From assembly GCA_017467815.1 (NCBI GenBank), contig JAFUKI010000057.1, forward strand, positions 4,533 through 68,532: DNA of 64,000 nt, given 5' to 3'. Each line of letters starts with the position of its first letter. The stretch's first letter is position 1. A program made the translations under genes and the position numbers. Below are positions 1,865 to 64,000 of this stretch, piece after piece. The DNA is from Clostridia bacterium. GTDB lineage: Bacteria > Bacillota > Clostridia > Oscillospirales > CAG-272. Under the pieces are notes generated by a model that was not told the DNA's origin, searched no databases, and saw nothing but the letters and a program-made list of their open reading frames with translations.

Positions 1865-3481
1865 TTATTCCATGCCCAATTCCTGACGCGTCTGTTTTGC
1901 GATCAGGTCTTTTTCCTTCATATAGTATTGCCGCGATATGGACAATAACACACCCATTTCCCCCAGCAGCATCATAAGAGAAGATCCGCCGTAGGAGAAG
2001 AAGGGGAGGGAGATACCGGTATTGAACATGATCTTTGTAACAACACACATATTCAGAACAGCCTGTAGACCCACATGGGTGGTGATTCCGAAGGCGACCA
2101 GACTGGAGAAAGTATCCGGTGCTCTGGTGGCAATGACATAACCGCGCCAGATAAAGGCGATATACAGAAGCACCAGGAAAACGCCGCCGATAAAACCCAG
2201 TTCTTCACACCAGATGGAGAAGATAAAGTCCGTATGTGCCGCGGAAACATAGCTGTATTTCTGCCGGCTCTCACCGAGACCAACACCGAACAGACCGCCG
2301 GAACCGATGGCATACAAACCCTGCGCCGTCTGATAGGCTTCATCGAGAATGTTTGCATTTTCATCCACATGGGTGGTGATTCGCTTGAGTGCGTACGGGT
2401 TAAGGAGCAGGAACAAACCGCCTGCCAATCCCCCAGCACCGGCATAAATGGGAAAAGTCCAGCGGAATTTACATCCGCCTACCAGCATAACAAGCCAGCC
2501 GATCACAAATATTATGATCGTACCGGACAAATGCTTTTCCAGAATGACAAGCCCGCAAGCCAGACCGATCAGTATTCCGGGATAGAGTACATGATATCGG
2601 AATATGCTTCTCCATTCCAGTGCTTCATCGATCTGCTTTTTATAAGTTTCCACGTACCATGCCATAATGATGATCAGTGAAAATTTCATAATTTCGGAGG
2701 GCTGAATGGTGATGATCTTCAAGTCCAGCCAACGCTTTGCTTCCCCTTCGGACATACCGAACAGAAGCACCATCACAAGCAAAACCAGTGTAACGCCGTA
2801 CAACCCCTTGGCAACTTTGCCGCGGAAAATTCTGTAGGGGAACAAGGAAATAACAAACATTGCCACAAGTCCGGCGGCAGCAAAAATCGCGTGCCGGATT
2901 CCATAGTACAGCATATGCTTGTTTTCCGCAAGTGCGGAGGGATAACTGGCGCTGAACACCATCAGGGTTCCCAGGCAGACCAGAAGCAGGATCAGACCCA
3001 GCATGATTTTGTCCACGCCGCCTCTGACACGAACAATATTTGCCTGCCATTCCCGCTCTTTCTGTTCTGCACGCATGAGCCGTTTTTCCTGACGGGGTGT
3101 CAGTGACCGGACCGGATCCAGTGCCGCTGTCTGTCGCGGAGGAGCGTTTCTGCCCTTCATCGGTTTCCGGGACTGCATTTGTTCCGGTTTCCGTACAGGC
3201 TGTACTCTGCCGGAAGTATATTTTGCCGTGTTGGGGTTATTTCTGTATTGACCGCCGTTTGTGTTACGGGGATTCGTATTGGCAGGGCGTCCGGAGGTGA
3301 AACGGTATTCGGATGCAGCCGGCTGTGTTCTCCGGGAGGTATCCGGATGCTGTCCGTTCTGTCTGCCGGAACTGCGATTCTGTACAGTATCCGTCCGGGC
3401 AGAAGATCTGGTTACCTGTTCCGGTCTTCTTCTGACATGGCGATTCCCGTTTGTATATGATTCATTCGCCACGAAAATCAC
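1865..3481 (-). CDS. ftsW: SEDS-family peptidoglycan polymerase FtsW/SpoVE with a long low-complexity N-terminus
   Basis: The polytopic core from about aa 160 carries SEDS hallmarks (FSASY, IQPSEIMKF, AHTDFIFS, FFSYGGSS). It is preceded by ~150 aa of R/P/N/Q/T-rich sequence. GTG start at 3481 lies 22 nt after the mraY stop, with AAAGGG upstream. Confidence 0.9.
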   Translation of the reverse strand: MIFVANESYTNGNRHVRRRPEQVTRSSARTDTVQNRSSGRQNGQHPDTSRRTQPAASEYRFTSGRPANTNPRNTNGGQYRNNPNTAKYTSGRVQPVRKPEQMQSRKPMKGRNAPPRQTAALDPVRSLTPRQEKRLMRAEQKEREWQANIVRVRGGVDKIMLGLILLLVCLGTLMVFSASYPSALAENKHMLYYGIRHAIFAAAGLVAMFVISLFPYRIFRGKVAKGLYGVTLVLLVMVLLFGMSEGEAKRWLDLKIITIQPSEIMKFSLIIIMAWYVETYKKQIDEALEWRSIFRYHVLYPGILIGLACGLVILEKHLSGTIIIFVIGWLVMLVGGCKFRWTFPIYAGAGGLAGGLFLLLNPYALKRITTHVDENANILDEAYQTAQGLYAIGSGGLFGVGLGESRQKYSYVSAAHTDFIFSIWCEELGFIGGVFLVLLYIAFIWRGYVIATRAPDTFSSLVAFGITTHVGLQAVLNMCVVTKIMFNTGISLPFFSYGGSSLMMLLGEMGVLLSISRQYYMKEKDLIAKQTRQELGME

Positions 3482-3503
3482 CTGCCCTTTCTTCTTTTAT
3501 GAA

Positions 3504-4511
3504 TCAGTGTAAGCCAAACAGCAGAGATACTGCCGCTGCTGCCGCTGTAATACCGCTTGCAGCAAATACGATTTTGACTTCCGACCATCCCTTTTTCTCA
3601 AAGTGGTGATGGATCGGCGCCATGAGAAACAATCTCTTTCCGTGAGTCAGTTTGAAGTAGAGAACCTGCAGCATAACCGAAGCGGTTTCGATAATATACA
3701 CAATACCGAACACCACTACCAGCAGGGGATTCTTCATCATGAAGGAACCGCCGACCACCAATCCGCCAAGGAACAGAGAACCGGTGTCCCCCATAAATAC
3801 TCTGGCAGGATAGAAATTATACACCAGGAATCCGCCGCAGGCACCCATAATGATGCTGCCCAGGAGAAGCAGTCCGCTGTCGGGTTCCGCCTGACCGTTC
3901 AGGAATCCGGCTGCCGCAAAGAACACACCGACAATCAGTGTCACGCCCGATGCAAGACCGTCAATCCCGTCCGTCAGGTTCACGCTGTTGATAATCCCCG
4001 TCAGCAGGAGCATAGCGAACACATAGTAGAAAATACCCAGTTCGATCTCCACGCCGACGAAAGGAATATACAAGGCAGTATTGTTTCCGCATACCAGGGT
4101 CATGCCCACCAGATACAGTGCCGCCACAATCAGCTGAAGCAAAAATTTCTGTTTTGCAGTCAGCCCCTCGTTCTGTTTCTTACGCAGTTTTGCCGCGTCG
4201 TCGATACAGCCGATCAGACCGCCTGCCACACCCAGCGCAAGGGTGAATACGAAAGGCAGTGTGGTACGTATACCGTCCGTCAGGACAAAATATACGGAGC
4301 CTGCAATACCCGTGATCACTGCCGCGATGATAAAAGCAAATCCGCCCATTGTAGGGGTACCTTCCTTGCTTTTATGCCATCTCGGACCGATATCCAGTAT
4401 TGTCTGTCCCATTTTACGGCTTTTCAGAATCGGAATCAGCTTCCGGGAAATGAGAACAGTCAGAATAAACGTACATACCAATGCAAGTATAAAAACAATT
4501 TTGTAGCTCAT
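3504..4511 (-). CDS. mraY: Phospho-N-acetylmuramoyl-pentapeptide transferase MraY
   Basis: 335 aa polytopic protein with KEGTPTMGG, NSVNLTDGIDGLA, ARVFMGDTGSL and APIHHHFE motifs. dcw context. Confidence 0.97.
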   Translation of the reverse strand: MSYKIVFILALVCTFILTVLISRKLIPILKSRKMGQTILDIGPRWHKSKEGTPTMGGFAFIIAAVITGIAGSVYFVLTDGIRTTLPFVFTLALGVAGGLIGCIDDAAKLRKKQNEGLTAKQKFLLQLIVAALYLVGMTLVCGNNTALYIPFVGVEIELGIFYYVFAMLLLTGIINSVNLTDGIDGLASGVTLIVGVFFAAAGFLNGQAEPDSGLLLLGSIIMGACGGFLVYNFYPARVFMGDTGSLFLGGLVVGGSFMMKNPLLVVVFGIVYIIETASVMLQVLYFKLTHGKRLFLMAPIHHHFEKKGWSEVKIVFAASGITAAAAAVSLLFGLH

Positions 4512-4549
4512 GAACGATCCTTACGCTTTCTCATATCATATTGGCCGCA

Positions 4550-25626: not shown

Positions 25627-25657
25627 CACACATCGGCAAAATACTGAATTCTGTTGC

Positions 25658-36989: not shown

Positions 36990-37961
36990 ATGATCTATAT
37001 TGATTCCGATTCCCTGAGCGCCCATTTCAATCTGGCTTTGGAGTATTATCTCGCTACGGAAAAAATCATAAATGACACCGTTGTTTTTCTCTGGCGCACA
37101 TCCCCCACCGTTGTCATCGGTAAATTCCAGAACGCACTGGAAGAACTGGACCGGCAGTATACGGAAGAAAAAGGTATCTGCATTGCAAGACGTATGTCCG
37201 GCGGCGGTACCATCTACAACGATGAGGGCGGACTTATGTTCACCTACATCGTCCCGGAAAACAAACCGGAAATTGATTTTCTCTCCTTCATTACGCCGGT
37301 GATTGATGCCTTAAACAAAATGGGTGTCCCCGCATCTGCCAGCGGTCGGAACGATATTCTCGTGGACGGCAAAAAGGTATCCGGCAATGCCCAGTACAAA
37401 ACAGGCGGTGTTACGGTACACCATGGTACGCTGATGTTTGATGTGGATATCGGTGAAGTGGTCCGGTCAACAACCCCGAAGCCGTACAAGATCACATCCA
37501 AAAGCATCCGGTCCGTGAGAGAACGGGTGACCAACATCCGGGAACACCTTCCGGCAGGTACGGATATGACCAGGGAAGAATTCAAAGCCCGGCTTGCGGA
37601 TGAACTTGCCGGCGACTGTCCCCGTCTGGTGCTGTCCGATGCCGATCTGACCCGCGTCAGGGAAATCGCAAAGGAGCACTTTATCCACAACGTATGGCAG
37701 GCACAGCCGCATTTTTCCATCGAAAAAATACTGCATCTGCCCGGCGGCACCATGGAGTTTTCTCTGGAAACCAGGCAGAACAGAATCCTGTCCGCTCATA
37801 TTACGGGAGATTTCTTCGGCAGTGTGGACGCGGCGGAAATCTGCACCCTGCTCACAGACACGGAACTGGAAGAAAAGGCCCTCACCGATGCCCTCGCGCC
37901 CCTTGCCGGACGGATTCTGGGAATCACCCCTTCGGAGATTGCCCGCGGTCTGTGTGAATAG
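36990..37961 (+). CDS. Lipoate--protein ligase
   Basis: 323 aa. RRMSGGGTIYND and GKKVSGNAQY (BPL/LPL catalytic domain) plus a C-terminal LplA accessory domain. Confidence 0.9.
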   Translation: MIYIDSDSLSAHFNLALEYYLATEKIINDTVVFLWRTSPTVVIGKFQNALEELDRQYTEEKGICIARRMSGGGTIYNDEGGLMFTYIVPENKPEIDFLSFITPVIDALNKMGVPASASGRNDILVDGKKVSGNAQYKTGGVTVHHGTLMFDVDIGEVVRSTTPKPYKITSKSIRSVRERVTNIREHLPAGTDMTREEFKARLADELAGDCPRLVLSDADLTRVREIAKEHFIHNVWQAQPHFSIEKILHLPGGTMEFSLETRQNRILSAHITGDFFGSVDAAEICTLLTDTELEEKALTDALAPLAGRILGITPSEIARGLCE

Positions 37962-51203: not shown

Positions 51204-51866
51204 TCAGTTCTGGACGACCATCTCAGGCAAATTCATTTCCGCAAGGAATTTACCGTAGATCTCATCTTCTGCATTCTGCCGTGCCTTAACAGCGTCGTCA
51301 TAATTACTGTAAGTACCCAAATACAGAAGTTTGCCCTGAAATCTCAAGCGAACATACCACTTGTTTTGCTTCTTATGCCAATATACGCCGCGTGTGCCGC
51401 TGGTGTTGGCAGCAGTCGGTTTCATGTCCTGTATCTTGGATAGCTGTGTACCGCCGACAAAACCGGCTGACTGGGTCATGGTCTTCACATTGCTGTTCCG
51501 CAGGCAGTTTATGCACATTCTTTCCTTCTCATCATTGAGTGAACTGCTTATACGGTATACTATCTCTCCGCACTCACATCTGCATTCCCACACCGGGAAC
51601 AGCATACTGCCGCGCTTAAGCTTTTCCTCTGTCCGTCTCAGCACTGTAAGTTTACCGAAAACTTTACCTGTTAAATCGGGGGATCTAACACAGCCGCAGC
51701 TTATTACGTGACCGTTCTTCAGATTGCCGGTAGTGACGCTGTGTGTATTTCCGCAATCACAGAGACAATTCCAACGCCGGTGTCCGCTTCCGTCAGATGG
51801 CAATAAATCCTTTACAACAAGTTTCCCAAACCGCTGTCCGGTTAAATCTTCATACTTCTTTGTCAC
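51204..51866 (-). CDS. AP2-domain DNA-binding protein with two N-terminal Cys4 modules
   Basis: 220 aa. Two repeats of LTG(Q/K)xFGKLxV...WxCxC(D/E)CG...C(G/x)C. The C-terminal GVYWHKKQNKWYVRLRFQGKLLYLGTYSNYDDAVKAR is an AP2/integrase-DNA-binding-type fold signature. Confidence 0.75.
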   Translation of the reverse strand: MTKKYEDLTGQRFGKLVVKDLLPSDGSGHRRWNCLCDCGNTHSVTTGNLKNGHVISCGCVRSPDLTGKVFGKLTVLRRTEEKLKRGSMLFPVWECRCECGEIVYRISSSLNDEKERMCINCLRNSNVKTMTQSAGFVGGTQLSKIQDMKPTAANTSGTRGVYWHKKQNKWYVRLRFQGKLLYLGTYSNYDDAVKARQNAEDEIYGKFLAEMNLPEMVVQN

Positions 51867-52029: not shown

Positions 52030-53604
52030 TCAGCCCAGTACATTCAGAGCACAATTATAGATCATAATGGCAACCTGAGCACGGGATGCGGGGCTCTGAG
52101 GATCGATAGCCGTGCCGGGAACATAAATCTTTTCAGCAATCGCCCATTCCATTGCTTCAACTGCCCAGTCAGCAACTTCAGCGCCATCCTTGTATTCATC
52201 AAGATCTGCACCGTTTTCTACAGTGTATCCTGCAAATTCAGTATAGCGGGCAATGATGGTTACAGCCTGTTCGATGGTGATCTCATCTTCTACGCCGAAT
52301 GTGTCATCGCCGTATCCGAGAACAATACCGTTTTCAGCAGCCCATTCTACGTAAGCAGAATAGTATTCACCGGTCTTGACATCCTTAAAGCTGGTGTCCG
52401 TGTAGAGAGATGTATTTACATTGTGCAGTCTGCCGAGAATGGTAACGAACATACCACGGGTGATGGTCATGTCGGGACCGAACTTGGTATCGGAAATACC
52501 ATTCATGATACCCTTCTTGTACAGGTATTCAACTGCTTCATAGCAGCTGTCGGTGGGTTTGATATCTGTGAAGGGAATCGCTGCGTTCTTCTTAAAGGTT
52601 ACATCAATGGTCTTATCGGAACGTACATTGGTGAATGTGTATTCTTCCACAGCTCCGATTTCCTTGCCATCTACCATAACGGAAGCGATTTCGTAACCGT
52701 CATCCGCCTTAATGGTATAAGTCAGAGAACCATTGTATTTTACCTGAGTTTTTCCTTCGGGTGTAATTGTACCGCCTTCACCGGCAGTTGCGGTGATGGT
52801 GTACTTCTGGCTGTGCATCATCATGATCCACATGAACCACTGTTCGAAATCAAACTGGTTATCGTTCTTGGGAATTACCTGACCTTCGTCAATCATGGTA
52901 CCGCAATCAGAACAATATACATCACCGGTATAGCCGTCTTCTTTGGAGGTAGCATCCTTATGACCGCGAACTTCCAGTTCACCTACGTGGTTGGTAGGGT
53001 CTACGTCGCCATATGCAAATGTTTCAGAGGATACAACACCACAATCTTCGTTTGCACAAACCTTGTAGTAAACCGCGGGGGAGATACAGGTTGCAGCAGA
53101 CTTCAGATACTTTGCATCAACAACTTCTGCATATGCAGAGTGTGTGCAGGGAACCGTTACGGAACCGGAAGTTACGGAAGCAGAGAATGTATCGTCTTTT
53201 GTTCCGATCTTATCCATCACAACGGTAACGTCAAACTCCCCACTTGCCCCATCAACAACTTCGAAAATAGCTGTTACCAGAACACCGTCATCAGTAACAA
53301 GATCTGTACCAGCATATGTAACTTTACCGGTTTCAGTATTGGCTACGAACACTCCATCGTCAGACAATTCACCTGCTTCAACACGTACAAGTTTTAAATC
53401 GCCCGGATAAGAAATGGAAAAACCATATGCAGTGAAACCGGAATTACCTTTCAGTGAAATGCTTACAGCAGCTTCACCACTAACTGCAGTAGTATTGGAC
53501 ACAATTACCTCGGTACCAACACCCGCTGCAAACACTGTCATTGCCATGCTGTTTATAAACAGCATGACAACCAACAGAATACTCAAAAGTTTTTTCATAA
53601 TCAA
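52030..53604 (-). CDS. Cell-wall-anchored cohesin protein (signal peptide, cohesin, Cys-rich segment, B-repeat-like module, three SLH repeats)
   Basis: Signal peptide MIMKKLLSILLVVMLFINSMAMTVFA. The cohesin-like beta-sandwich pattern is VIVSNTTAVSGEAAVSISLKGNSGFTAYGFSISYPGDLKLVRVEAGEL...DGVLVTAIFEVVDGASGEFDVTV. The C-terminal PFTDIKPTDSCYEAVEYLYKKGIMNG..., FKDVKTGEYYSAYVEWAAENGIVLG... are SLH repeats. Confidence 0.85.
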   Translation of the reverse strand: MIMKKLLSILLVVMLFINSMAMTVFAAGVGTEVIVSNTTAVSGEAAVSISLKGNSGFTAYGFSISYPGDLKLVRVEAGELSDDGVFVANTETGKVTYAGTDLVTDDGVLVTAIFEVVDGASGEFDVTVVMDKIGTKDDTFSASVTSGSVTVPCTHSAYAEVVDAKYLKSAATCISPAVYYKVCANEDCGVVSSETFAYGDVDPTNHVGELEVRGHKDATSKEDGYTGDVYCSDCGTMIDEGQVIPKNDNQFDFEQWFMWIMMMHSQKYTITATAGEGGTITPEGKTQVKYNGSLTYTIKADDGYEIASVMVDGKEIGAVEEYTFTNVRSDKTIDVTFKKNAAIPFTDIKPTDSCYEAVEYLYKKGIMNGISDTKFGPDMTITRGMFVTILGRLHNVNTSLYTDTSFKDVKTGEYYSAYVEWAAENGIVLGYGDDTFGVEDEITIEQAVTIIARYTEFAGYTVENGADLDEYKDGAEVADWAVEAMEWAIAEKIYVPGTAIDPQSPASRAQVAIMIYNCALNVLG

Positions 53605-53645: not shown

Positions 53646-56600
53646 TTACTCAGCAGGGAATACAGTGATCAAACCAACATAATATTCAAGAATAAGTTGT
53701 GCATCGAACATATCAATGATATTATCAGCATTGACATCAGCCAAAGAAAGTGCGATTTCGTTAGCATCAATCAAGTCAACATAATATTCAAGAATAAGCT
53801 GAGCATCAAACATATCAACTACACCGTCAAGGTTTGCATCGCCCAGCAGTCCTTCTCTGGTAATATCCAGAGCATTATAAATACTGTCAGCATCAATATT
53901 TTCCACATAAGTTGTGTTGGTATTGATCGCGGCATATACGAAGAAGTGCTGATTCAGAACGGCAACAGCGGCATCTACGTATTCGGCAACAGCGCTGAGG
54001 TCGATATTGAGTTCAGCGGGAAGTACAGCCTGCAGTGCTTCTGTGGGATCGATAAGACCGGTCACAACAACCTGTGCATCAGGAGCCGCTTCGCGAATGT
54101 CATTCAGAACTGCGGGGAATTCCACTGCGAATTCGAAATAACTGTACAGAACATTTTCCAAAGCTGCAACAGCCAGTTCAAGAACAGGGATCTCAACTTT
54201 AATATCGGGATCAAATCCAAGGAGATCGGGACTTGCCAATTCTGCACCCAGGTCGAAGATGACAACAGGTTCTTCGATCTGTTCGCTGAGAACAGTTTCT
54301 GCAATGCTGAGGATTTCATCTTTTGCCTTGATTGCAGCGGCATCAAACTTGCTCCAGTCAAGTTCTTTGACCTTTGCATTCATGTCGATGCCCATTTCGG
54401 TCATGTATTCAACGATGGTATCGCCGAATATGCCGTTCAGCAAACCTGCCAGATCTTCGTTAGCCTTAACTACTTCGACAACCATACCCATTGCCTGAGC
54501 ATAAGCAAAGGATACAAATTCATTCATATCAAAGGTTACCGTAACCAGGTCAGCCTTAGCAACTTCGTCAAGGTAATCTTCATTCAGAGCGAACTGCGCA
54601 TATTTATCGTCCAGACCGAGTTTCTCTGCAAGAGCAGCCGCATAGTCGGATGTACCCAGTGCAACATAGTAAGAATCGTAATCGATGGTATATTCGCCGT
54701 GAGTCGTGTCATAAATTACATATTCAAGAGCAGCCTTGATGGACTCTATACCGCTTTCTGTGGTTTCGGCGATATCAGCTGCAGCTTCGACCATGATATC
54801 TGCAACAGCCACAACTTCATTACCGATGTTGTCGGCAGCTTCAGTTACAGCTTCAATAATCACACCGGCAGCTTCGAGAACAGTTTCTTCATATGCATCG
54901 ATTGCAGTATCAATAACCTGGACAGCAGGATCTACTGCAGCGAAGATTGCAGCAGCAGATGCGCCATAAGCTGCAAGTGCATCGGAATAGATGGTGCCAG
55001 CTGTGATGGTAACGATAGCATCTACCTGCTTTGCAAGGGTATCTGCAGTAGTGATGAGCTTCATTACATCACCTTCTGCGATTTCATAGATGTCTGCAGC
55101 TACATTTCCAAGAGCTGTCAGAACGTCACCAGTCTGTGCAAGAGCATTCTTAGCATCGTCAATGGTTTCTACGCTTTCAAGGGTAGCAATGACATTATCC
55201 ACGATTGCTTCGATTTCGTCCTGCTTTGCAAGGAGAGCAGATTCGGAATAAGTCAGTTCAACAGCTTCAACAAGTGCATAGAGCTGCTTGCCTGCATCAG
55301 CAATCTTCGCATTGGTGGAAGCAGACAGCTTGATAGCTTCTGCTTTAATAGTATCCAGTGCAGGAGTTACCACTTCAGTAATATCGTTTACAGCTGTTTC
55401 GGTAGCGGCAACAATTTCTTCAACAGCATCGGCGACAGTCTGGCAAACAACATCCATGGTATCGAGAACAATAGCATCGATGTTTGCTGCTGCGGTCTCC
55501 ATTGCTGCAATGGTATCTTCGTAACCGGAAGTAACTACTGCGATGAATTCTTCAACTTCCATACCGGTTGTATCGAGGAATACATCCACAGGGGAACCTT
55601 CTTCAATATAATTCAGAAGTTCGGAGATATAGGGGATGAGCTTTTCATAAGTTGCAGCAAGGAGCTTCAGAGAAGCATTTGCTTCGTTTACAAGTGCTTC
55701 AGCTTCAGCAGCAAGTTCTTCAACCTGAGCTATTATAGCCTTAACTTTTTCAACGGTAAGTTCAGCTTCGTTTTCAATCTTGTTGATAACATTCTCAACA
55801 TTCTGTGCGAATGCTTCGAGCTGAGCTATGAAATCATTTACCTTTGCAAGCGTGTTTTCCAGTTCAGCAACGATGGCTGCAACTTCTTCATCAGCATATT
55901 CTTTAAGAACATTCAGAACAGCATTGATATCGTCTGCAACGGCTTTGAGTTCATCAATCAGAGCGTAAATTTCGCTGAGATCGATATCTTCAAATTCAAC
56001 ATCGTCAATAAAGTCTTTTACATCGTTGATAAGGTCATTGATGATGTCTTCAATAACAGCCTCAGTAACACCGCCGAGTTCCAGAGTGTTGTCAATGATC
56101 AGAGTCAGGAGATCACCGACCATCTGGTCAAAGCGGCCATCGAACCAATCCGCATACTGACTGCCTGCATTTTCGGCAACATCAACCATATCCTGGAGAG
56201 CATCAAAGCTCTTGCGAAGCATATCAGCAACTGCAGGATCCACTTCTTCGTCGATCACTTCGATGATAGCGTCAACAAGTTCACCCTGGAAGCTTATGAG
56301 CTGATCTTCGAGAGCATTCAGGATCTGTTCGTAAGCGAGAGCAGAAGAAACAGGATTCTTCATCATCTCATCTTTAACAGTTTCAATTTCTGCCTTGATC
56401 TCATCAATTCTATCGATGATTTCCTGTACCTGTTCGCTGTTGTATACTGCATCAGCGATGGCTTCGATATCGGATGCAAGGACAGCGGAAATTGCAGTAA
56501 TGATCACCTTGATATCATCGGATGCGGCTGCAGCAGCTGCGATAAATTCTGTCACAGCATCATCACCTGCAGCGTAGATGATAGCAAGCGCTTCAGCAGG

Positions 56601-59600
56601 GGTTTCAGTGAGATATTCACGAACAGCGGCACCAAGTGCGGGGTCAACCTTGTCAGCCAGCTGACCTACGGATTCAACCCAGGCTGCATATTCTTCGTTG
56701 AATTCTTCAACACCGTTTGCGATCCAAGCATATGCTTCGTTTGCGATGGTTTCAACAAGATCTGCGTAGTAGTTTACGGTGTCAGTAAACTGATCGATGT
56801 AAGGATCTACAACAACACCAAGTTCATTTGCGAGAGCAAGGATATTGTTGCGGTGTGTGTAGAGATCTTCTTCAAGATCAAGGATCGCTGCCCAGGTGTC
56901 ATCGATGTTATCGTTACCGAGGACAGCCTTGATCTCTTCAAGAGTTGCGACAGTTGCATTCAGTTCATTGAGAAGCTTTGCTTTAACTTCATTAAGCTGT
57001 GCGTCAACAGCGGTTTCGTCAACAAATTCGATTGCTGCTTCAACGCCGTCGATAGCCACATCAATGTAGTCCTGAGCCTGTGCAATGTAGCCGTTAGCTA
57101 CTGCCTGCGCATAAGCGTACTTGTATGCTTCTTTGAGGTTTGCAACAGTTTCATCTTTGGGGGTGTATTCGGTTTCGTATGCATTAAGTACTGCTGCATA
57201 CAGAGCATCGTGACCGGCTTCGGAAGGATGAGAACCGATACCGTTACCGATTATACAACGAGCAAACAGAGCCAACAGACCTGCCAGTTCACTATTAGCA
57301 ACAGTATCACCCAGAACATCGGGCATTACCAGCAGAGTGCAGAGCTTATTGGCAATTCCGACAACACCATCGTTCAGTGTTGTAACAGCGTCATCCACAA
57401 AACCCTTAACAGTATTGACTACAGTATCCACACCGGCGATAGCTTGCTTCAAGGAATTTACAGTACCAACTGTATTATCTTCGCCTGTATCATAAAATCC
57501 CTTGAGCTGTTCCGCAGTATACTCACTATTTTCAGCCATAAAATCATAGATAGCATCTTCGCCGCCCAGATACAGAGCCTTGACATCATCAGCTTCCAGC
57601 TGTTCGGCGGACTGATCGGCAACAATCTCATAAGCCTTGGTCAGATCAGCACCGGTGTACAGATCAGCCACATCTTCTGCGGAAAGGGCATAGTCACCGG
57701 AGTTAGCAGCCACCAGAGCATAAGCAACAGCCAGAACTGCATCATCGCCGCCCTTAACCATGTCAACAACCTGTTCTGCATTCACCATGTCATTGGATCC
57801 ACCAGCTACAAATACAGCAACTACATCCAGTTTAGTTGCACCTGCAGCAGCAGCGGCATCCGCAAAATCCTCCATAATGGAGCTGAAAGGATCTCCGTCG
57901 AGAAGTGAGCCAAGACCCATAATAGAATTGATTCCTACGGGAGTGTTCTTGCTTTTTACGATTGCCCTATCAAATGCAAGGTACATGGAGATGGAGGTAG
58001 CCTTCTCGGTATTGGTAGGCTCAACCGCATACGAAAGCTTGCCTGCATCGTTCAGATCTTCATAATCTTCGATTTCTTCCAGAGTAATGGGAACAACCGC
58101 TTCACCCAGCAGATCCCAAACCATACCGTCACCATTTTCGCCAACGATAGATTCTACGAAACGGTCGCGAACGGTATCATCAGTAATAGGATACTCATAA
58201 GTATCAACGATAGCCTGTACATAGTCTGCTTCTGCCCAGTAGAAGGTTGCTTCATCATATACGCTATTTTCTACAGCCTGCATATAGGTAGGCAGAGCAG
58301 CGATATATGCGTTCAGAGGTACGAACAGATAGTCCATAATCTCGCCCAGTGTTACATCCGCAGTAATTGCGCGGGAGGCATTGGACTTGATAGTATTCAT
58401 CAGTGCAACCAGAATAATCTCTGCGTCGGGATTCAGCTGAAGAATAGCTTCAACAGTACCGGCGTAGTTCAGTGCATAGCTGATGATAGAATACATAAGC
58501 GTGTTGTAAAGAGCCTCAACAGTGCTGGTACCTTCGACACCGTCATCTGCTACCAAACCATATTCTGCCAGGATCTTATCAACTTCACCCAGAAGTACGA
58601 GAAGTTCACTCTTCATCGTAGGATCACACTCATTAAGAGCGTTTTCTATGTCGTACTTCATAGCATCTTCAGGTTCGCCGCCGTCAAAGCCGATGGCTTC
58701 CATGATGCGGCCGAACATAAATACGCCAAAGTTACCGTTACCCATTCCGAGAGAGATAACGTCAGCGTTTGCTACGGATTCCTGATAGTATTTTGCAACG
58801 ATCTTCAGTGCGTCGATGTCGCTTTCGTAGGCATCTTTAGCATCATCGGTAGAGAATGCTGCACCGCCATCTTTACCTTCAATGCAGTATGCTGCAACGT
58901 CAAAACGATAGTTGTTCACCAGTTGATCCCATGTCCAGTAGTCACCGTTTGTGAATACAGAGTACCACAGGTCTTCATCCCAACCGTCTTGCAGTTCATT
59001 GATTACCTCTACAACTGCAGGATCGTCGTAATCGACTTCAAGCAGCCAATGCAGGTCTTCTGCACGCATAGCAGACATAGCCAACTGTGCATGGTTGAAT
59101 CCGAAGTAATCAGCAAACTGGTTTGCATAGGACTCATCACCGTAGTCTTCAACACCGGTATTGCCATCGTACCCTTCAAGACCATAACCATTGCTCATGG
59201 AGTCGCCGAGGGAAACGTAGTTTTTATTACTATAAACCTGGAATTCTGAGAAACCATTTTTGTTCACGAATTCAACAAAATACTGACCATTCTTATACTG
59301 AACAAGCAGATTCTTGTGTGTATACTCGGTTCCATCGTCCTTAACGTGAACTACAGTTATCTTTTCGCCTTCAACAGCAAAACCTACGGGCAAAGGAATA
59401 ATAACAGTAACAGCCACACCGGTCAAATCGATGGCCTTGCTGTCAACGATCTGTTGTTTACCGTCACCCTTAGCAACAACCTGTACAACAGGAGTAATAT
59501 CAAGAACGAGAGTCTTGTTTTCAGCAGAGTCTACTTCAACAGACTTCACTTCAACATTCATAGCGGACTCAGTGATGATCTCTTCGGGAACGAAATCAGT

Positions 59601-60881
59601 AACGGCTGCCAAAATTTCGTCTGTATCACTCATCACTTCATTCTGTGCTGCAGTAATAGCATCAGTAAGTGCTTCTTGATTGTCTTCGTCCGCAGTAATC
59701 TCGATGTTGGATACAGCTTCCACTACATCCTGTGTAACATCATCGGGAACCACGGGAGCAATAGTACCACCGGAAACATTGGGTTCTGCGGGCACGATAT
59801 TCTCAGTAGTCTTAACAACCTTATATCCATCAGCAACCTGTACTGCAATCAGATCGTATTTTTTCAACATATCCTGAGATGCATTTCCTGCAGTATCTTT
59901 GTCATATGCTATTCCGTCATAGGTGAAAGTACCTGTTCCGGTAGTATTATACGCCTTACCAGAAATAAGATTATCGCTCAAATCAACATCATCGGTAATA
60001 TTGGCAGACAATTTTCCAGTAAATTCACATTCGGTAAATGATGTTGTTGTTCCGTCTTCGTTATGCCATACACCGGCAATACCGCCCATTTCTTCTACGT
60101 CAGCAGCTTCGCCTGCATCAGTGATAGTCACATCACCGGAGCACTTAACATTCACTAAATTATTACCGTAATGTGCGATACCAATGATACCACCGACGTC
60201 ACAAGTAGAACCGATTACATCAATATCAGAGGTGATATTCTTGAAAGTGTGACCACCTTCACCAGCAAAACCAATGACACCACCTACGTATGTACGATAC
60301 GCTTTACCGTCTTCAATGGAATATGCCTTAACATAACTTGTTTCATCTACATCAACGGTAATGTCAGTCCAGTTTGCGTAAGCATTCTTACCACCAACAC
60401 CACCAACATATGCCAAACCATTTACTTCTACGTGACCGGTTACTTTGATATTGGTATACTCAGATGTATAGGGAGTACCCACTACAGTCCCAACATTACA
60501 ATAACCGGAAACATCAGCATTATTAACAGTCAAATTCTTGACTTCACCATTGGTTGTAAAACCAAACAAACCAACATTACTATTATTTCCGGTGATTACC
60601 AAATTGGAAATCACATGGTTATCTCCATTGAATGTTCCCTGGAACTTATTCGATGAATTGCCAATCGGAATCCATTCCTCATTGTTCAAGTCAATGTCAG
60701 CGGTAAGTGTTACCGTTTTTCCACTATACGTGTCACCGGCATTGACTTTATCACGAAATTCTTTCAATTCCGCGAGTGTACTAATGTTCACAACATCATC
60801 GTCCGCCGCAAAAACCCAAACAGGTGTCACGGACAGAATCATTGTGAGCACAAGCACAAATGATAGTAGCCTTTTCTTCAT
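53646..60881 (-). CDS. Giant (2,412-aa) secreted acidic protein: GLUG-motif region, expanded SGNH/GDSL hydrolase-like domain, ~1,100-aa Ala/Glu/Asp/Ile/Val-rich helical region, C-terminal dockerin
   Basis: ATG 60881 after GGAGGT. Signal peptide MKKRLLSFVLVLTMILSVTPVWVFA. GLUG-type repeats (NVGLFGF, YVGGVGG, YVGGVIGFAG, DVGGIIGIA, MGGIAGV). SGNH block I VSLGDSMSNGYG (Ser codon ~59200) and a block V-like SHPSEAGHD (~57220). A dockerin duplicated F-hand, DANLDGVVDMFDAQLILEYYV / DVNADNIIDMFDAQLILEYYV (53649-53850). Confidence 0.88.
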   Translation of the reverse strand: MKKRLLSFVLVLTMILSVTPVWVFAADDDVVNISTLAELKEFRDKVNAGDTYSGKTVTLTADIDLNNEEWIPIGNSSNKFQGTFNGDNHVISNLVITGNNSNVGLFGFTTNGEVKNLTVNNADVSGYCNVGTVVGTPYTSEYTNIKVTGHVEVNGLAYVGGVGGKNAYANWTDITVDVDETSYVKAYSIEDGKAYRTYVGGVIGFAGEGGHTFKNITSDIDVIGSTCDVGGIIGIAHYGNNLVNVKCSGDVTITDAGEAADVEEMGGIAGVWHNEDGTTTSFTECEFTGKLSANITDDVDLSDNLISGKAYNTTGTGTFTYDGIAYDKDTAGNASQDMLKKYDLIAVQVADGYKVVKTTENIVPAEPNVSGGTIAPVVPDDVTQDVVEAVSNIEITADEDNQEALTDAITAAQNEVMSDTDEILAAVTDFVPEEIITESAMNVEVKSVEVDSAENKTLVLDITPVVQVVAKGDGKQQIVDSKAIDLTGVAVTVIIPLPVGFAVEGEKITVVHVKDDGTEYTHKNLLVQYKNGQYFVEFVNKNGFSEFQVYSNKNYVSLGDSMSNGYGLEGYDGNTGVEDYGDESYANQFADYFGFNHAQLAMSAMRAEDLHWLLEVDYDDPAVVEVINELQDGWDEDLWYSVFTNGDYWTWDQLVNNYRFDVAAYCIEGKDGGAAFSTDDAKDAYESDIDALKIVAKYYQESVANADVISLGMGNGNFGVFMFGRIMEAIGFDGGEPEDAMKYDIENALNECDPTMKSELLVLLGEVDKILAEYGLVADDGVEGTSTVEALYNTLMYSIISYALNYAGTVEAILQLNPDAEIILVALMNTIKSNASRAITADVTLGEIMDYLFVPLNAYIAALPTYMQAVENSVYDEATFYWAEADYVQAIVDTYEYPITDDTVRDRFVESIVGENGDGMVWDLLGEAVVPITLEEIEDYEDLNDAGKLSYAVEPTNTEKATSISMYLAFDRAIVKSKNTPVGINSIMGLGSLLDGDPFSSIMEDFADAAAAAGATKLDVVAVFVAGGSNDMVNAEQVVDMVKGGDDAVLAVAYALVAANSGDYALSAEDVADLYTGADLTKAYEIVADQSAEQLEADDVKALYLGGEDAIYDFMAENSEYTAEQLKGFYDTGEDNTVGTVNSLKQAIAGVDTVVNTVKGFVDDAVTTLNDGVVGIANKLCTLLVMPDVLGDTVANSELAGLLALFARCIIGNGIGSHPSEAGHDALYAAVLNAYETEYTPKDETVANLKEAYKYAYAQAVANGYIAQAQDYIDVAIDGVEAAIEFVDETAVDAQLNEVKAKLLNELNATVATLEEIKAVLGNDNIDDTWAAILDLEEDLYTHRNNILALANELGVVVDPYIDQFTDTVNYYADLVETIANEAYAWIANGVEEFNEEYAAWVESVGQLADKVDPALGAAVREYLTETPAEALAIIYAAGDDAVTEFIAAAAAASDDIKVIITAISAVLASDIEAIADAVYNSEQVQEIIDRIDEIKAEIETVKDEMMKNPVSSALAYEQILNALEDQLISFQGELVDAIIEVIDEEVDPAVADMLRKSFDALQDMVDVAENAGSQYADWFDGRFDQMVGDLLTLIIDNTLELGGVTEAVIEDIINDLINDVKDFIDDVEFEDIDLSEIYALIDELKAVADDINAVLNVLKEYADEEVAAIVAELENTLAKVNDFIAQLEAFAQNVENVINKIENEAELTVEKVKAIIAQVEELAAEAEALVNEANASLKLLAATYEKLIPYISELLNYIEEGSPVDVFLDTTGMEVEEFIAVVTSGYEDTIAAMETAAANIDAIVLDTMDVVCQTVADAVEEIVAATETAVNDITEVVTPALDTIKAEAIKLSASTNAKIADAGKQLYALVEAVELTYSESALLAKQDEIEAIVDNVIATLESVETIDDAKNALAQTGDVLTALGNVAADIYEIAEGDVMKLITTADTLAKQVDAIVTITAGTIYSDALAAYGASAAAIFAAVDPAVQVIDTAIDAYEETVLEAAGVIIEAVTEAADNIGNEVVAVADIMVEAAADIAETTESGIESIKAALEYVIYDTTHGEYTIDYDSYYVALGTSDYAAALAEKLGLDDKYAQFALNEDYLDEVAKADLVTVTFDMNEFVSFAYAQAMGMVVEVVKANEDLAGLLNGIFGDTIVEYMTEMGIDMNAKVKELDWSKFDAAAIKAKDEILSIAETVLSEQIEEPVVIFDLGAELASPDLLGFDPDIKVEIPVLELAVAALENVLYSYFEFAVEFPAVLNDIREAAPDAQVVVTGLIDPTEALQAVLPAELNIDLSAVAEYVDAAVAVLNQHFFVYAAINTNTTYVENIDADSIYNALDITREGLLGDANLDGVVDMFDAQLILEYYVDLIDANEIALSLADVNADNIIDMFDAQLILEYYVGLITVFPAE

Positions 60882-61109
60882 AAGATTACCTCCAGTTTTT
60901 TGAAACACAGAGTTGCTGCCCTCCATATTTCTTGAATTGATATATATGCAATCTACAGCCTTGCTGGACTGCAGTACTGCCAAAGTAATATATTTTTGGA
61001 TCCATTATCTGCTTCCGCTGCAAGGACACCATGGTGACGGATACTCATGTACCCATCACCGTTCCTTGATCGCAGCAAAAACAGGTAATCTATATCCTTA
61101 TTAACGTAT

Positions 61110-62864
61110 TTATCTCTGCGCCCAGCTGACGTAATCAAATTGGGCATACTGAATCTCAAGTGTACGATAATCGTTCTTGCCGGATCCGGTTAAAGGAATA
61201 CTGTCCACAGCGATTACCGCTACAGGTCTTCCCCGTTCTTCCAGACGCGTCTGGCATTCATCATAAATATTCCGGCATACACTCTCGAAATCAGCCACAT
61301 CAGCAAGTTCCACAACTACCAGCGGATACTGTCCCTGACTGTGTTCACGGTCATCCACGCCGATTACGCAGCTGTTGCGCACAACGGGGTTCTCCGTAAC
61401 CATACTCTCAATATTAACCGGGAATACCTTATGTCCGTCAAAACGGGTGATCATCCGTTTTACACGCCCTTTAATAAACAGGAAACCATCTTCATCCATA
61501 TATCCGATATCGCCGGAATGAACCCAGATCTGTCCGTCATCATGGCGGCGCATAACATAATCTGTCTCCTCGGGGCGATTGTAATACCCCTTCATCATGG
61601 ACGGACCGGTAACACAGATTTCCCCTTCTTCGCCGATGTTCTTCTCCTCACCCGTATCCGGATCGAAAACAGAAACCGTGGTCGTAATAGAAGGGATCCC
61701 TACACTGCCCGCCTTGTATATATCATTCACACAGAAGGATGCCGCAGCGGACAACTCCGACATACCATATCCCTGCGCCAGAGGATAACGGATATTGTGT
61801 GCCTTCATAAAGGCATGCAGTTTGCCTTCCAATCCTTCGTTCATGGTATCCCCGCCGGAACCCATGGTGATCAGGAACGAAAGATCGAAATTCTTCATTT
61901 CTTTGCTCTGCATCAGTGTCTCATAGAATGCAGGCGTACTGATCATATGGTTGGGACGGTAGTTCTTTACCAATTTCCCGATGGTCGCCGGTACAAAACG
62001 GGGGATCAGAATCAATTCAAACCCCATACACAACGGCATATGCATACCGCAGACCATTCCGTAAGAGGTAAATACCGGAATAATCCCGAGGAAACGGTCC
62101 CCAGGCTTTATGTAAAGTCCGGCATATTTAAAATTATAGGAAACAGCGTTGACACTGTCATTGGTGAGCATAACACCTTTCGGGAAACCGGTCGTTCCGC
62201 CGGTGTATGCGATAGCCATGGTTGCGTCACCGACATACGGTGCTTCAACGGCAGTCACACCCTTACCTTTACCCAGGAAAGTATCCCAGTCCATAAGGTA
62301 GTCACCGTTATAGCGGATCTTTTCCGGAGAAGCTATCTTCATGGCGATCTTCTTTCCAAGAGGAAGAGATCGTGCCGCTGACTGTACGATTATATGTTTT
62401 TGATGGATCTCTCCCATGATCGGTTCAATTTTCGGGAATACCATGCCGATTATCACAAGCACGGAAGAACCGGACTCCTGAACCATGCGGCGGATGCTGT
62501 CCTTATCCATACGGGGATCAATGGTATTCGCCGTTGCCCCAAGTTTATTCAGCGCGTAAATAGCCGCTACGCATTCGGGTACTGCTACGGAAACGAAAGA
62601 TACTATATCCCCCTGCTTCACACCCAGCGCAGCAAAGGCATTGGCACAGGCATCAATATTCTCAAAAAGTTGTGCGTAGGATATTTTCTTTCCGTAATAA
62701 CAGAGAGCAGGACTGTTCAAATGATCCTGATTTGCCTGTTTCAGATATGTATATGCTGTACATGCCGGCAAGGACTGACGAAGGTTTTCTTCGGAATAGA
62801 ATTTCAGCCACGGCTTTTGTTCGGAAGGTCTTCTGCTTTTATTGACAGTTTCTATTTTTTTCAT
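61110..62864 (-). CDS. AMP-dependent synthetase/ligase (acyl-CoA synthetase family)
   Basis: 584 aa. AMP-binding core motif AYTGGTTGFPKGV, QGYGMSE, and HSGDIGYMDEDGFLFIKGRVKRMI with a C-terminal GKNDYR lysine motif. GGAGAG Shine-Dalgarno. Confidence 0.9.
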   Translation of the reverse strand: MKKIETVNKSRRPSEQKPWLKFYSEENLRQSLPACTAYTYLKQANQDHLNSPALCYYGKKISYAQLFENIDACANAFAALGVKQGDIVSFVSVAVPECVAAIYALNKLGATANTIDPRMDKDSIRRMVQESGSSVLVIIGMVFPKIEPIMGEIHQKHIIVQSAARSLPLGKKIAMKIASPEKIRYNGDYLMDWDTFLGKGKGVTAVEAPYVGDATMAIAYTGGTTGFPKGVMLTNDSVNAVSYNFKYAGLYIKPGDRFLGIIPVFTSYGMVCGMHMPLCMGFELILIPRFVPATIGKLVKNYRPNHMISTPAFYETLMQSKEMKNFDLSFLITMGSGGDTMNEGLEGKLHAFMKAHNIRYPLAQGYGMSELSAAASFCVNDIYKAGSVGIPSITTTVSVFDPDTGEEKNIGEEGEICVTGPSMMKGYYNRPEETDYVMRRHDDGQIWVHSGDIGYMDEDGFLFIKGRVKRMITRFDGHKVFPVNIESMVTENPVVRNSCVIGVDDREHSQGQYPLVVVELADVADFESVCRNIYDECQTRLEERGRPVAVIAVDSIPLTGSGKNDYRTLEIQYAQFDYVSWAQR

Positions 62865-62995
62865 TGGCTCTCCATAAATTAAGGGTTCATAGTTAAACGA
62901 ACATACGGTAGGACAAAATCAGTATTTTGTTCCCTGTGATACAGGTTTGATGAATTTTTTAAACAAAAAAATAAAGCAGCACCATGTTGGTGCAC

Positions 62996-63068
62996 AAAAA
63001 AACGCGTAATGACAAGGACACAAAAAAAGCTGCATTTGTGCCCTGTCTTTTACGCGTAAATTTTTTTT
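62996..63068. terminator. Long bidirectional terminator hairpin
   Basis: ACGCGTAATGACAAGGACACAAA (63002-63024) pairs imperfectly with TTTGTGCCCTGTCTTTTACGCGT (35-57). An A6 run lies on the left (62996-63001) and a T8 run on the right (63061-63068). Confidence 0.7.
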
Positions 63069-63099
63069 GGAAATCTATTGAAATATTTTTCAAAATCTA

Positions 63100-63128
63100 T
63101 TGAAAAATATATTTTCTTGTGATATACT
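63100..63128 (+). promoter_or_regulatory. Near-consensus sigma-A promoter TTGAAA-17-TGaTATACT (currently pointing right)
   Basis: TTGAAA at 63100-63105, a 17-nt spacer, TG at 63120-63121, TATACT at 63123-63128. It is preceded by a tandem duplication of AAATCTATTGAAA (63071-63105). Confidence 0.6.
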
Positions 63129-63246
63129 CTATATGTATATTAGTGTTCTGATATTTTGGCATTGTTTTCATATGTCAAAATACTGATTTTGTCTTGCCGG
63201 TAAACTCCGGCATATTTTCTATGACAGTCAAAATACTGATTTTGTC

Positions 63247-64000
63247 CTATACGATCAGACATAGTTTTTCGAGTTGATGCTCGTATTCCGTGGCTGTTGT
63301 TATCAGATAAATGCGGGTCGTATCAATACTGCTGTGTCCAAGTACATCTGCCAGTCTGACAATATCCTTGCACGCCTTATAGAACACAGTGGCAAACAAA
63401 TGTCTGAGGTTATGCGGAAACACCTTGGTGTGTTCCACTCCGGCTTTTGTACAGATATTTTTCATCTCTGCCCATATTTGTTTACGCGACAGACTTTTTC
63501 CGTTGTTTGTGAGAAATATTTCTCCGGCAGCGATTTTTTGTTTTTTGGCGTACTGCAGTAATTTACGGCATAATTTTTTCGGCAGAAGAATACTGCGGAT
63601 CTTCCCTTTGAGAGATATTTCCGTTCTTGCATTTTTTGCCGCAGAAACAGTGATATACTTCAGCTCAGAAACACGTATTCCGCTGGCACATATTGTCTCC
63701 ATCAAGAGTGCAAGTCTTTCCTTGCCCATACCGTATGCTGTTTCAATAAGACGTTCATATTCTGCCCGTGTCAATTCTCTGGATTTTTCACGAAACAGTT
63801 TTCGCTGTATTTTCAAAAACCGCAGCCGGCAGTCATCGCGTCCGATATAATGAAAGAAACCGTTGAGTGCCGCAATCATCGAATTCACGGTAACAGCTGC
63901 ATACTGATTGTTGACAAGCTCGTCCCGCCATGCAAGCGCTATCTCCCGGCTCAAGGATCTACAGCCAAGAAAACACGCGAATTTTTGGATGTCGCGAAGA
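63247..64000 (-). CDS. Tyrosine recombinase (integrase/invertase family); N-terminus lies beyond the right window edge
   Basis: Catalytic signature ASGIRVSEL (Arg), HNLRHLFAT (HxxR), LGHSSIDTTRIY (His ... Tyr nucleophile). My own translation shows the frame stays open upstream of the track start (TTG 63954) to position 64000 (...LRDIQKFACFLGCRS-LSREIALAWRDEL). Confidence 0.88.
   Translation of the reverse strand, partial: LRDIQKFACFLGCRSLSREIALAWRDELVNNQYAAVTVNSMIAALNGFFHYIGRDDCRLRFLKIQRKLFREKSRELTRAEYERLIETAYGMGKERLALLMETICASGIRVSELKYITVSAAKNARTEISLKGKIRSILLPKKLCRKLLQYAKKQKIAAGEIFLTNNGKSLSRKQIWAEMKNICTKAGVEHTKVFPHNLRHLFATVFYKACKDIVRLADVLGHSSIDTTRIYLITTATEYEHQLEKLCLIV

Follow-up and report, generated by a model that had tools for sequence, protein, structure and literature searches.

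We analysed a window of 64,000 nucleotides (the whole stretch of DNA, positions 4,533 to 68,532 of contig JAFUKI010000057.1 in assembly GCA_017467815.1) from a Clostridia bacterium of the Oscillospirales. Near its right-hand end, the gene of a Xer-like tyrosine recombinase and a leftward series of genes headed by an AMP-forming acyl ligase are separated by a short intergenic segment, which carries a promoter-like sequence and hairpins and is associated with three copies (A, B and C) of a short core site (Table 1). A preliminary description of this DNA had proposed that the segment is an invertible promoter switch (inverton), captured in its OFF orientation, and that it controls the ligase gene together with the giant dockerin and cohesin genes that follow.

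Table 1. Features of the recombinase-ligase intergenic segment and of the neighbouring genes (positions in the window).
Feature	Position	Strand	Remarks
Xer-like tyrosine recombinase	63247–64000	−	3' 251 codons of 280 aa; PF00589; gene extends beyond the window
Core site A	63227–63248	−	GGACAAAA TCAGTA TTTTGACt on the minus strand; overlaps the recombinase stop codon (63247–63249)
Small hairpin, predicted terminator	63195–63222	+	Between B and A; TGCCGG..CCGGCA plus TATTTTCT (63195–63212)
Core site B	63174–63195	−	aGACAAAA TCAGTA TTTTGACa; polarity as A, 53 bp from A
Predicted promoter	63100–63128	+	TTGAAA-17-TGaTATACT; 10/12 consensus score plus TG upstream; faces the recombinase
Long hairpin	62996–63068		−26.8 and −29.6 kcal/mol, z −3.7 and −4.8; A-runs/T-runs on both sides
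Second small terminator-like hairpin	62979–62993	−	GCACCAACATGGTGC then T-rich tail; for leftward transcripts; weak fold (−8.5 kcal/mol, z −1.8)
Core site C	62911–62932	+	GGACAAAA TCAGTA TTTTGTTC; 46 nt upstream of the ligase ATG
B x C invertible segment	62930–63175		246 bp; reversed in homologous segments of relatives
A x C alternative invertible segment	62930–63228		Longer inversion via site A
AMP-forming acyl ligase	61110–62864	−	584 aa; first gene past the switch; ribosome-binding site GGAGAG
Protein with C-terminal type I dockerin	53646–60881	−	2411 aa; 228 bp after the ligase
SLH protein	52030–53604	−	524 aa; signal peptide, N-terminal all-beta cohesin-like module, Flg_new_2 repeat, 3 SLH repeats

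Recombinase, core sites and promoter-bearing segment

The complete recombinase gene lies at positions 2776–3618 of the 106-kb source contig (L001), where the upstream genes encode Glucosamine_iso and AXE1 proteins and no mobile-element genes flank it. Its product matches the PF00589 catalytic domain with 77.8 bits (cut-off, 27.1) and possesses the complete R...HxxR...H...Y signature, the residues R139, K163, H226, R229, H252 and Y261 being invariant in a 25-sequence alignment of which the window protein is the first row. The preliminary description was right in placing a tyrosine recombinase with an intact signature in contact with the right-most repeat. The best profile matches of the protein are XerA, XerD and XerC, and the closest solved structures are XerA-like (4a8e) and XerD (1a0p); none of the Xer equivalog cut-offs is reached (XerA, 135 bits versus 220; XerD, 116 versus 330; XerS, 62 versus 267), and the NCBIfam models of FimB and FimE give 28–30 bits for cut-offs of about 221. 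Elsewhere in the window, a 323-aa open reading frame (36990–37961, plus strand) contains a part (37472–37720) that weakly resembles the N-terminal domain of this protein (33% over 84 aa, E 0.003), and may encode a second, unrelated tyrosine recombinase, for example a housekeeping Xer protein.

Each copy of the repeat, read directly from the sequence, consists of GGACAAAA, TCAGTA and TTTTGnn. The core site is 22 bp long, with the asymmetric 6-bp spacer TCAGTA lying between two 8-bp arms that are inverted relative to each other; because the arms are nearly palindromic, polarity is given by the 6-bp centre alone, and this centre is inverted in C relative to both A and B. An inverted-repeat search recovered the arms 62909–62929 and 63229–63249 (21 nt, complementarity 100%, 299 bp between them), and the arms 62906–62929 and 63176–63199 (24 nt, complementarity 92%, 246 bp between them), and the right-hand copies A and B form a perfect 20-nt direct repeat with a spacing of 53 bp. 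The three sites, all within 340 bp, are arranged in a 2+1 inverted set, as had been claimed for a left 19-mer and two right copies with quasi-palindromic arms around an asymmetric 6-nt centre. When up to three mismatches were allowed, the 19-mer occurred three times in the window, always at the switch, for an expected number of 0.01, and none of 100 shuffles reached three copies. The degenerate extra copy reported at 25637–25654 did not survive as an additional recombination site: it is an 11-nt half match with no second arm, no partner and more than three mismatches to the 19-mer. Most of the single 18-mer matches in unrelated phyla are accompanied by neither a recombinase nor a partner site, and were taken as chance.

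The segment between the sites is non-coding, and the signals that the preliminary description had located in and beside it are all recovered. They comprise the near-consensus promoter, which points rightwards; the small hairpin that follows it at 63195–63212, which is scored as terminator-like (fold −11.8 kcal/mol, z −3.1); and the long hairpin behind the promoter, which currently stands between the recombinase and promoter on one side and the ligase on the other. This long hairpin folds on both strands, like the small one much more stably than shuffled controls, and is predicted to be a strong bidirectional terminator. The promoter scan also agrees with the claim that the ligase has no acceptable promoter in the present orientation, as no minus-strand match was scored between its ATG (62864) and the recombinase. 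No Rfam family was matched within 60500–64000. The features by which invertons are recognised are present as follows: inverted repeats surround a short intergenic segment, a site-specific recombinase adjoins it (its stop codon overlaps site A), and a promoter lies inside the segment, for either flank, at the consensus level only. The small hairpin is kept, with a varied loop, in three homologous loci (contigs L139, L141 and L208), the L141 copy being at the far end and in the opposite orientation. Besides, an 18-nt direct repeat (17 of 18 nt identical; GTAAAGTCCGGCATATTT at 62112–62129 and GTAAACTCCGGCATATTT at 63200–63217) ties this hairpin to a spot within the ligase gene, and may be due to chance.

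Homologous switches and their orientations

At E < 1e-40, about 8000 homologues of the recombinase are retrieved from gut and rumen metagenomes and Oscillospirales-type genomes, most of them 278–284 aa long. The loci that we examined have recombinases 44% to 86% identical to that of the window. In every one of them, palindromic arms and a 6-bp spacer make up a site located 0–45 nt from the stop codon, and wherever the contig is long enough an inverted partner is found 184–338 bp downstream. The spacer is identical between the partner sites of a locus and varies between loci (TCAGTA, TCTGTA, TCAACA, TCTATA, TTTATA, TCGGCA, TCCACA and others). L208 (86%), the closest relative, has TCTGTA at each of its three sites where the window has TCAGTA, a concerted change such as is demanded by strand exchange within the spacer. 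A second site of the same polarity is also present in L139, L208 and L209, and occurs at the far end in L141.

When oriented by the promoter, the interiors of 16 of 16 family members comprise an A-run/hairpin/T-run, followed by a −35 box, N17 and a TGn-extended −10 box; the distance from the promoter end to the repeat is 43–52 nt in 12 of them and 24–36 nt in the other four, and the geometry of the cassette is mirror-symmetric in relatives found in the ON state. The family design would be that of a terminator-insulated promoter, which fires out through one site. At all 16 loci checked, the gene past the distal site lies on the strand that the flipped promoter would drive, usually 14–80 nt away. 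These cargo genes encode giant SLH/MBG_2/Big_2 proteins, dockerin proteins, DUF4379 proteins, a BspA-type LRR protein, a LysR regulator with an ABC transporter, a GGDEF response regulator and an SPFH protein, as well as methyltransferase-like and ParB-like proteins (both judged from translations only); from these annotations, the cargo appears to consist often of surface proteins.

From the following lines of evidence, we conclude that the homologous switches clearly invert. First, in an Agathobaculum species whose recombinase is 66% identical to that of the window, the 235-bp interior occurs in both orientations beside an identical recombinase: seven contigs have it in one sense and six, among them the isolate genome GCA_054658635.1, in the other. 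In blastn comparisons, a stretch of 269 bp is reversed (99.3% identity) between flanks that match at 100%. Second, five more Agathobaculum contigs from Logan, and six similar ones, stop exactly 17 nt past the stop codon, at the inner edge of the repeat; in two other Logan contigs, L140 and L142, which stem from relatives of 78% and 81% identity, the sequence breaks off exactly at the inner border of site A. The Logan assembler works with k-mers of 31 nt; since the repeat is shorter than the k-mer, a break at the inner edge is expected from reads of mixed orientation. Third, the L139 and L141 loci are collinear in the recombinase (83%) and the downstream gene (78%), and the 326 bp between their outer sites are reversed at 77%. 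Fourth, the interiors of L158 and L169 align with a score of 63.5 when one is flipped and of −4 in the same sense (shuffle mean −5.6, standard deviation 5.1). Fifth, the promoter segment of the window itself is reversed relative to that of L209 (79% over 114 bp), next to a collinear recombinase gene.

Two further sets of contigs were rejected as evidence of inversion. The apparent orientation variant of L146 and L173 is merely a different gene call. In L165 versus L167 and L166 versus L168, the similarity just stops at the site. The recombinase genes of L165 and L167 are 92% identical (DNA) and their similarity ends exactly at the proximal site (stop codon plus about 58 nt), beyond which interiors and cargo are unrelated (a BspA-LRR protein and methyltransferase-like genes, respectively), a pattern that suggests cassette exchange at the site.

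Given the conservation of the cassette, the 66%-identical member seen in both orientations and the reversed relatives, we uphold the proposal of an invertible promoter between the recombinase and the leftward genes, and assign a probability of about 85% to the reading in which the segment works as a site-specific invertible promoter cassette, operated by the 280-aa Xer-like tyrosine recombinase encoded next to it. Very probably, it is an inverton captured in the OFF state, well organised and belonging to a widespread clostridial family, and a good example of a switch type that is already known.

Several points weigh against this reading. The promoter and the terminators are predictions based on consensus or energy. 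The inner arms of the sites differ slightly, TTTTGAC in A and B versus TTTTGTT in C. In the species of the window, the source contig and L138 (99.93% identical, from a second sample) have the same orientation, and no flipped copy of the exact locus was seen in 18-mer scans of genome and metagenome contigs and look-ups of the exact protein, which covered one further assembly. Three other species are found in a single orientation, with the promoter toward the recombinase (UMGS1232, 6/6; P0108/P0070, 20/20; P0055, 10/10); some members of the family are therefore strongly biased or rarely flip. Lastly, the 228-bp gap between the ligase and the giant gene is structured and may carry its own promoter, which would perhaps leave the giant gene outside the switch.

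The uniform orientation of both assemblies of the species and of 36 of 36 assemblies of the three other species, and the unlikeness of the A/B inner arms to that of C, would suit a relic or locked switch, in other words a segment descended from a working inverton that now flips never or too rarely, its genes being silent or driven from elsewhere. We regard such a fate as unlikely: the recombinase is intact in all its catalytic residues, the three sites have the same spacer and perfect outer arms, the joint spacer change at the three sites of the closest relative points to ongoing selection for recombination, and consensus assemblies display the majority orientation only. For a live invertible promoter cassette, we infer that inversion takes place in the species of the window as well.

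The direction of the promoter bears on another explanation. All copies in the four species with several assemblies, including that of the window (2/2), have the promoter toward the recombinase; across lineages, this is the case at 11 of 17 loci by promoter score, four being clearly the other way and the calls for L158 and L169 being weak. Among further loci, L208 and L190 have it toward the recombinase, and L209/L210 and L213 away from it. These orientations, the small hairpin placed exactly so as to define a short transcript, and the wide variation of the downstream genes across the family are consistent with a real switch whose main output is the control of the recombinase or a small RNA (either a transcript of about 85 nt that stops at the small hairpin or an antisense RNA), so that the genes of the ligase and the dockerin protein would be incidental neighbours and have promoters of their own. 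We consider this improbable in view of the downstream genes lying on the strand of the flipped promoter at 16 of 16 loci, usually 14–80 nt from the distal site, of the want of any other promoter match before the ligase, and of the mirror-symmetric cassette geometry in ON-state relatives.

As regards mobility, genes for relaxase, MobC/NikA, ArdA, other integrases or phage capsid proteins occur just upstream of the recombinase in L139 (1–5700), L141 (1–5900), L144 (1–2200) and L143 (281–2293), and 17 homologues belong to predicted viral contigs, often at the contig end. Apparently, the module either moves together with mobile elements or marks a place where insertions are frequent. These neighbours, the position of some members at predicted provirus ends and the ranking of XerA, XerD and XerC as top profile matches could be taken to mean that the repeats are dif-like sites for dimer resolution, or the attachment sites of a mobile element with the recombinase as its integrase; the streptococcal xerS gene also adjoins its site. 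We give this explanation hardly any weight, as no Xer model comes anywhere near its cut-off (135 bits versus 220 for the best), every locus has an inverted pair of sites 184–338 bp apart, interior DNA is found reversed between unchanged flanks, and the source contig has no mobile-element genes flanking the recombinase. Dimer resolution of the Xer/dif type was rejected in particular, on the missed Xer cut-offs and the 2+1 inverted set of three sites within 340 bp.

Two other observations concern the members of the family. In L143 (5142–6044), and also in L157 (5153–6010) and L170–L179, the first switch-driven gene encodes a catalytically dead paralogue of the recombinase (38% identical to the neighbouring recombinase; active-site R changed to A, HxxR to RxxK), and is followed by the gene of a giant SLH protein or of a BTAD regulator. 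A possible role of this paralogue is to bind the same sites and, while the switch is ON, to bias or lock it. In L209 (2923–3030), the A-B interval consists of a tandemly duplicated 3' end of the recombinase gene together with its site. The sibling contig L211, without this interval, represents either a deletion by A x B recombination between the direct repeats or the form preceding the duplication.

Proposed mechanism, predicted states and likeness to known switches

We propose that the recombinase binds the 22-bp core sites through their 8-bp inverted arms and exchanges strands within the TCAGTA spacer. As A and B have one polarity and C the opposite one, recombination would invert the DNA between them. 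In the cassette, the long hairpin would insulate the rear, and the extended −10 promoter would fire out through the nearer site. In the present state the promoter faces the recombinase, and the small hairpin between B and A would end its transcript short of the recombinase gene, which would otherwise be read in antisense; the long terminator would block any read-through that comes from this gene. Because the promoter faces away and the long terminator intervenes, the ligase gene would be OFF, and the giant dockerin and SLH genes probably likewise. Inversion by B x C would turn the promoter to the ligase, about 106 nt upstream of the ATG by arithmetic on the sequence (about 105 nt in the preliminary description), and switch it ON.

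The third site would enlarge this repertoire to four states. In the first (A, small hairpin, B, promoter toward the recombinase and terminator, C), found in the window and L208 (86%), the switch is predicted to be OFF, with the transcript stopped at the small hairpin. The second, obtained by B x C inversion, has the promoter toward the cargo, is predicted to be ON, and is represented by L139 (78%), L209/L210 (79%) and the two-site L213 (80%). In the third, obtained by A x C inversion, the small hairpin would be carried along with the promoter, which would point to the ligase and still be blocked; no representative was seen among the loci examined. The fourth would arise from the third by a further A x B' inversion, with the promoter toward the recombinase and no hairpin in between, the hairpin lying reversed beside C; it is predicted to be OFF, with unblocked antisense transcription into the recombinase gene, and is represented by L141 (81%). 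The window and its close relatives (78–86% identity) therewith fill three of the four predicted states. The position of the small hairpin and the second site at the far end in L141 can be reached only by way of the longer A x C inversion; this arrangement bears out the idea that the second right copy allows an inversion longer by 53 bp.

In fimS, a 314-bp invertible promoter segment with 9-bp repeats is inverted by FimB and FimE, and FimE is under orientational control. Only by analogy with fimE do we infer that the promoter, when it reads into the recombinase gene, could damp the recombinase and so stabilise that state; the small hairpin of the window would relieve this damping. Antisense self-repression of the recombinase, if true, would explain why most assemblies have the promoter toward it. 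We advance, as a doubtful extension of the invertible-cassette reading, that the whole is a four-state device, whose first state is OFF yet still switchable, whose fourth state is locked OFF by antisense transcription lowering the flipping rate, and which gates a dockerin protein on its SLH-anchored cohesin-like partner.

The switch is like fimS in its short invertible promoter segment, its inverted repeats, its adjacent tyrosine recombinase and the predicted ON/OFF control of a surface structure; dependence of recombinase expression on orientation, as for FimE, is predicted here from the direction of the promoter. Unlike fimS, it has one recombinase instead of two, 22-bp sites with a 6-bp spacer, one site placed on the recombinase stop codon, a built-in putative bidirectional terminator behind the promoter, and a third site with a portable terminator. 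The RecV switches of C. difficile (cwpV, flgB, cmrRST), of which cwpV has terminator formation adding to its OFF state, are also operated by a tyrosine recombinase on short intergenic segments upstream of cell-wall, surface or motility genes in a host of the class Clostridia. RecV acts at several distant switches, whereas each recombinase of the present family lies directly at its own switch. In loxP, FRT and dif, two inverted arms flank an asymmetric spacer of 6–8 bp, which sets polarity and must be identical between partners. The core sites have this layout, with spacers that co-vary between partner sites across loci; their 8-bp arms are shorter than those of loxP and FRT (13 bp) and dif (11 bp), and they are arranged for inversion, in a 2+1 set.

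PsrA (CreX) of S. pneumoniae is a small Xer-like tyrosine invertase, which acts on short inverted repeats, performs inversion in vitro and generates hsdS 'epigenetic invertons' (PMC7672463, PMC7096588). One source labels a 66%-identical homologue of our recombinase as 'tyrosine-type DNA invertase PsrA'. Unlike PsrA, which shuffles hsdS coding segments, the recombinase of the window borders a non-coding, promoter-bearing segment with an AMP-ligase and a dockerin protein as neighbours; an hsdS inverton of the PsrA type (Type I restriction-modification) was rejected, as there is no hsdS next to the switch.

The closest published description comes from the PhaseFinderDC survey of hCom2, a defined gut community, in which inverton group 139 goes together with tyrosine invertase group 35 and comprises 33 invertons, 32 of them from Clostridia, in 17 strains (PMC11892184). 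Nearly all have a tyrosine recombinase within 5 kb, the examples given have 14–26-bp repeats and 206–228-bp interiors, and flipping was seen at the read level in Intestinimonas butyriciproducens and Clostridium sp. D5 (PMC11892184). These groups match our family in size, taxon and recombinase linkage (PMC11892184), and are probably the same family; the repeat strings themselves were found in none of the paper texts searched. A core site on the stop codon, a terminator-promoter cassette and three-site versions are not described for group 139 in the survey text that we read (PMC11892184). The novelty claimed in the preliminary description accordingly stands in part: clostridial invertons with an adjacent tyrosine invertase have already been catalogued (PMC11892184), and phase variation linked to a cohesin-dockerin system was not found in the literature searched.

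The three-site layout with its portable terminator, and the dockerin cargo, are the parts that deserve follow-up. More generally, our data provide a sequence-defined model for a very abundant phase-variation module of gut and rumen Clostridia, made of a 22-bp core site joined to the stop codon of the recombinase gene, a terminator-insulated promoter at a fixed distance from the site and optional third sites. With these layout rules such switches can be found from assemblies alone, and they predict which genes are bet-hedged, often those of giant SLH, dockerin or LRR surface proteins. In the present case, if the reading is true, a large surface structure of the cohesin-dockerin type would be expressed in a subpopulation only, which matters when signals from fibre- or host-attached Oscillospirales are interpreted in metagenomes and metatranscriptomes. 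With its compact cassette and single small recombinase, the switch may also be of use as a synthetic-biology part.

Downstream genes

The ligase is certainly the first target of the switch, and the control of the giant dockerin and SLH genes would proceed from it by read-through. As had been claimed, no intrinsic terminator was scored in the ligase-giant gene gap (60882–61109); on its minus strand, this gap contains a long imperfect hairpin (about 61000–61072) with no T-run and no Rfam match, which could be a leader or processing element.

The cohesin-dockerin nature of the cargo is borne out for the dockerin, as Dockerin_1 is matched at residues 2346–2397 of the 2411-aa protein (26.3 bits, cut-off 22.9). 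For the 524-aa protein, the SLH anchor is well matched (102 bits), and its N-terminal module gives no cohesin match in Pfam (E up to 1) and no sequence match in the Protein Data Bank (PDB). A homologue search with this module returned too few sequences for an alignment, and the AlphaFold2 model was built from the single sequence; it is an all-beta sandwich of moderate confidence (pLDDT 71), which in Foldseek retrieves R. flavefaciens type III cohesins (2zf9, E 7.7e-4, TM 0.55) among other beta-sandwiches. On this model, it is plausible that the module is a cohesin. Just past the SLH gene, a 220-aa open reading frame (51204–51866, minus strand) has a sub-threshold match to the AP2 domain (20.5 bits versus 33.3).

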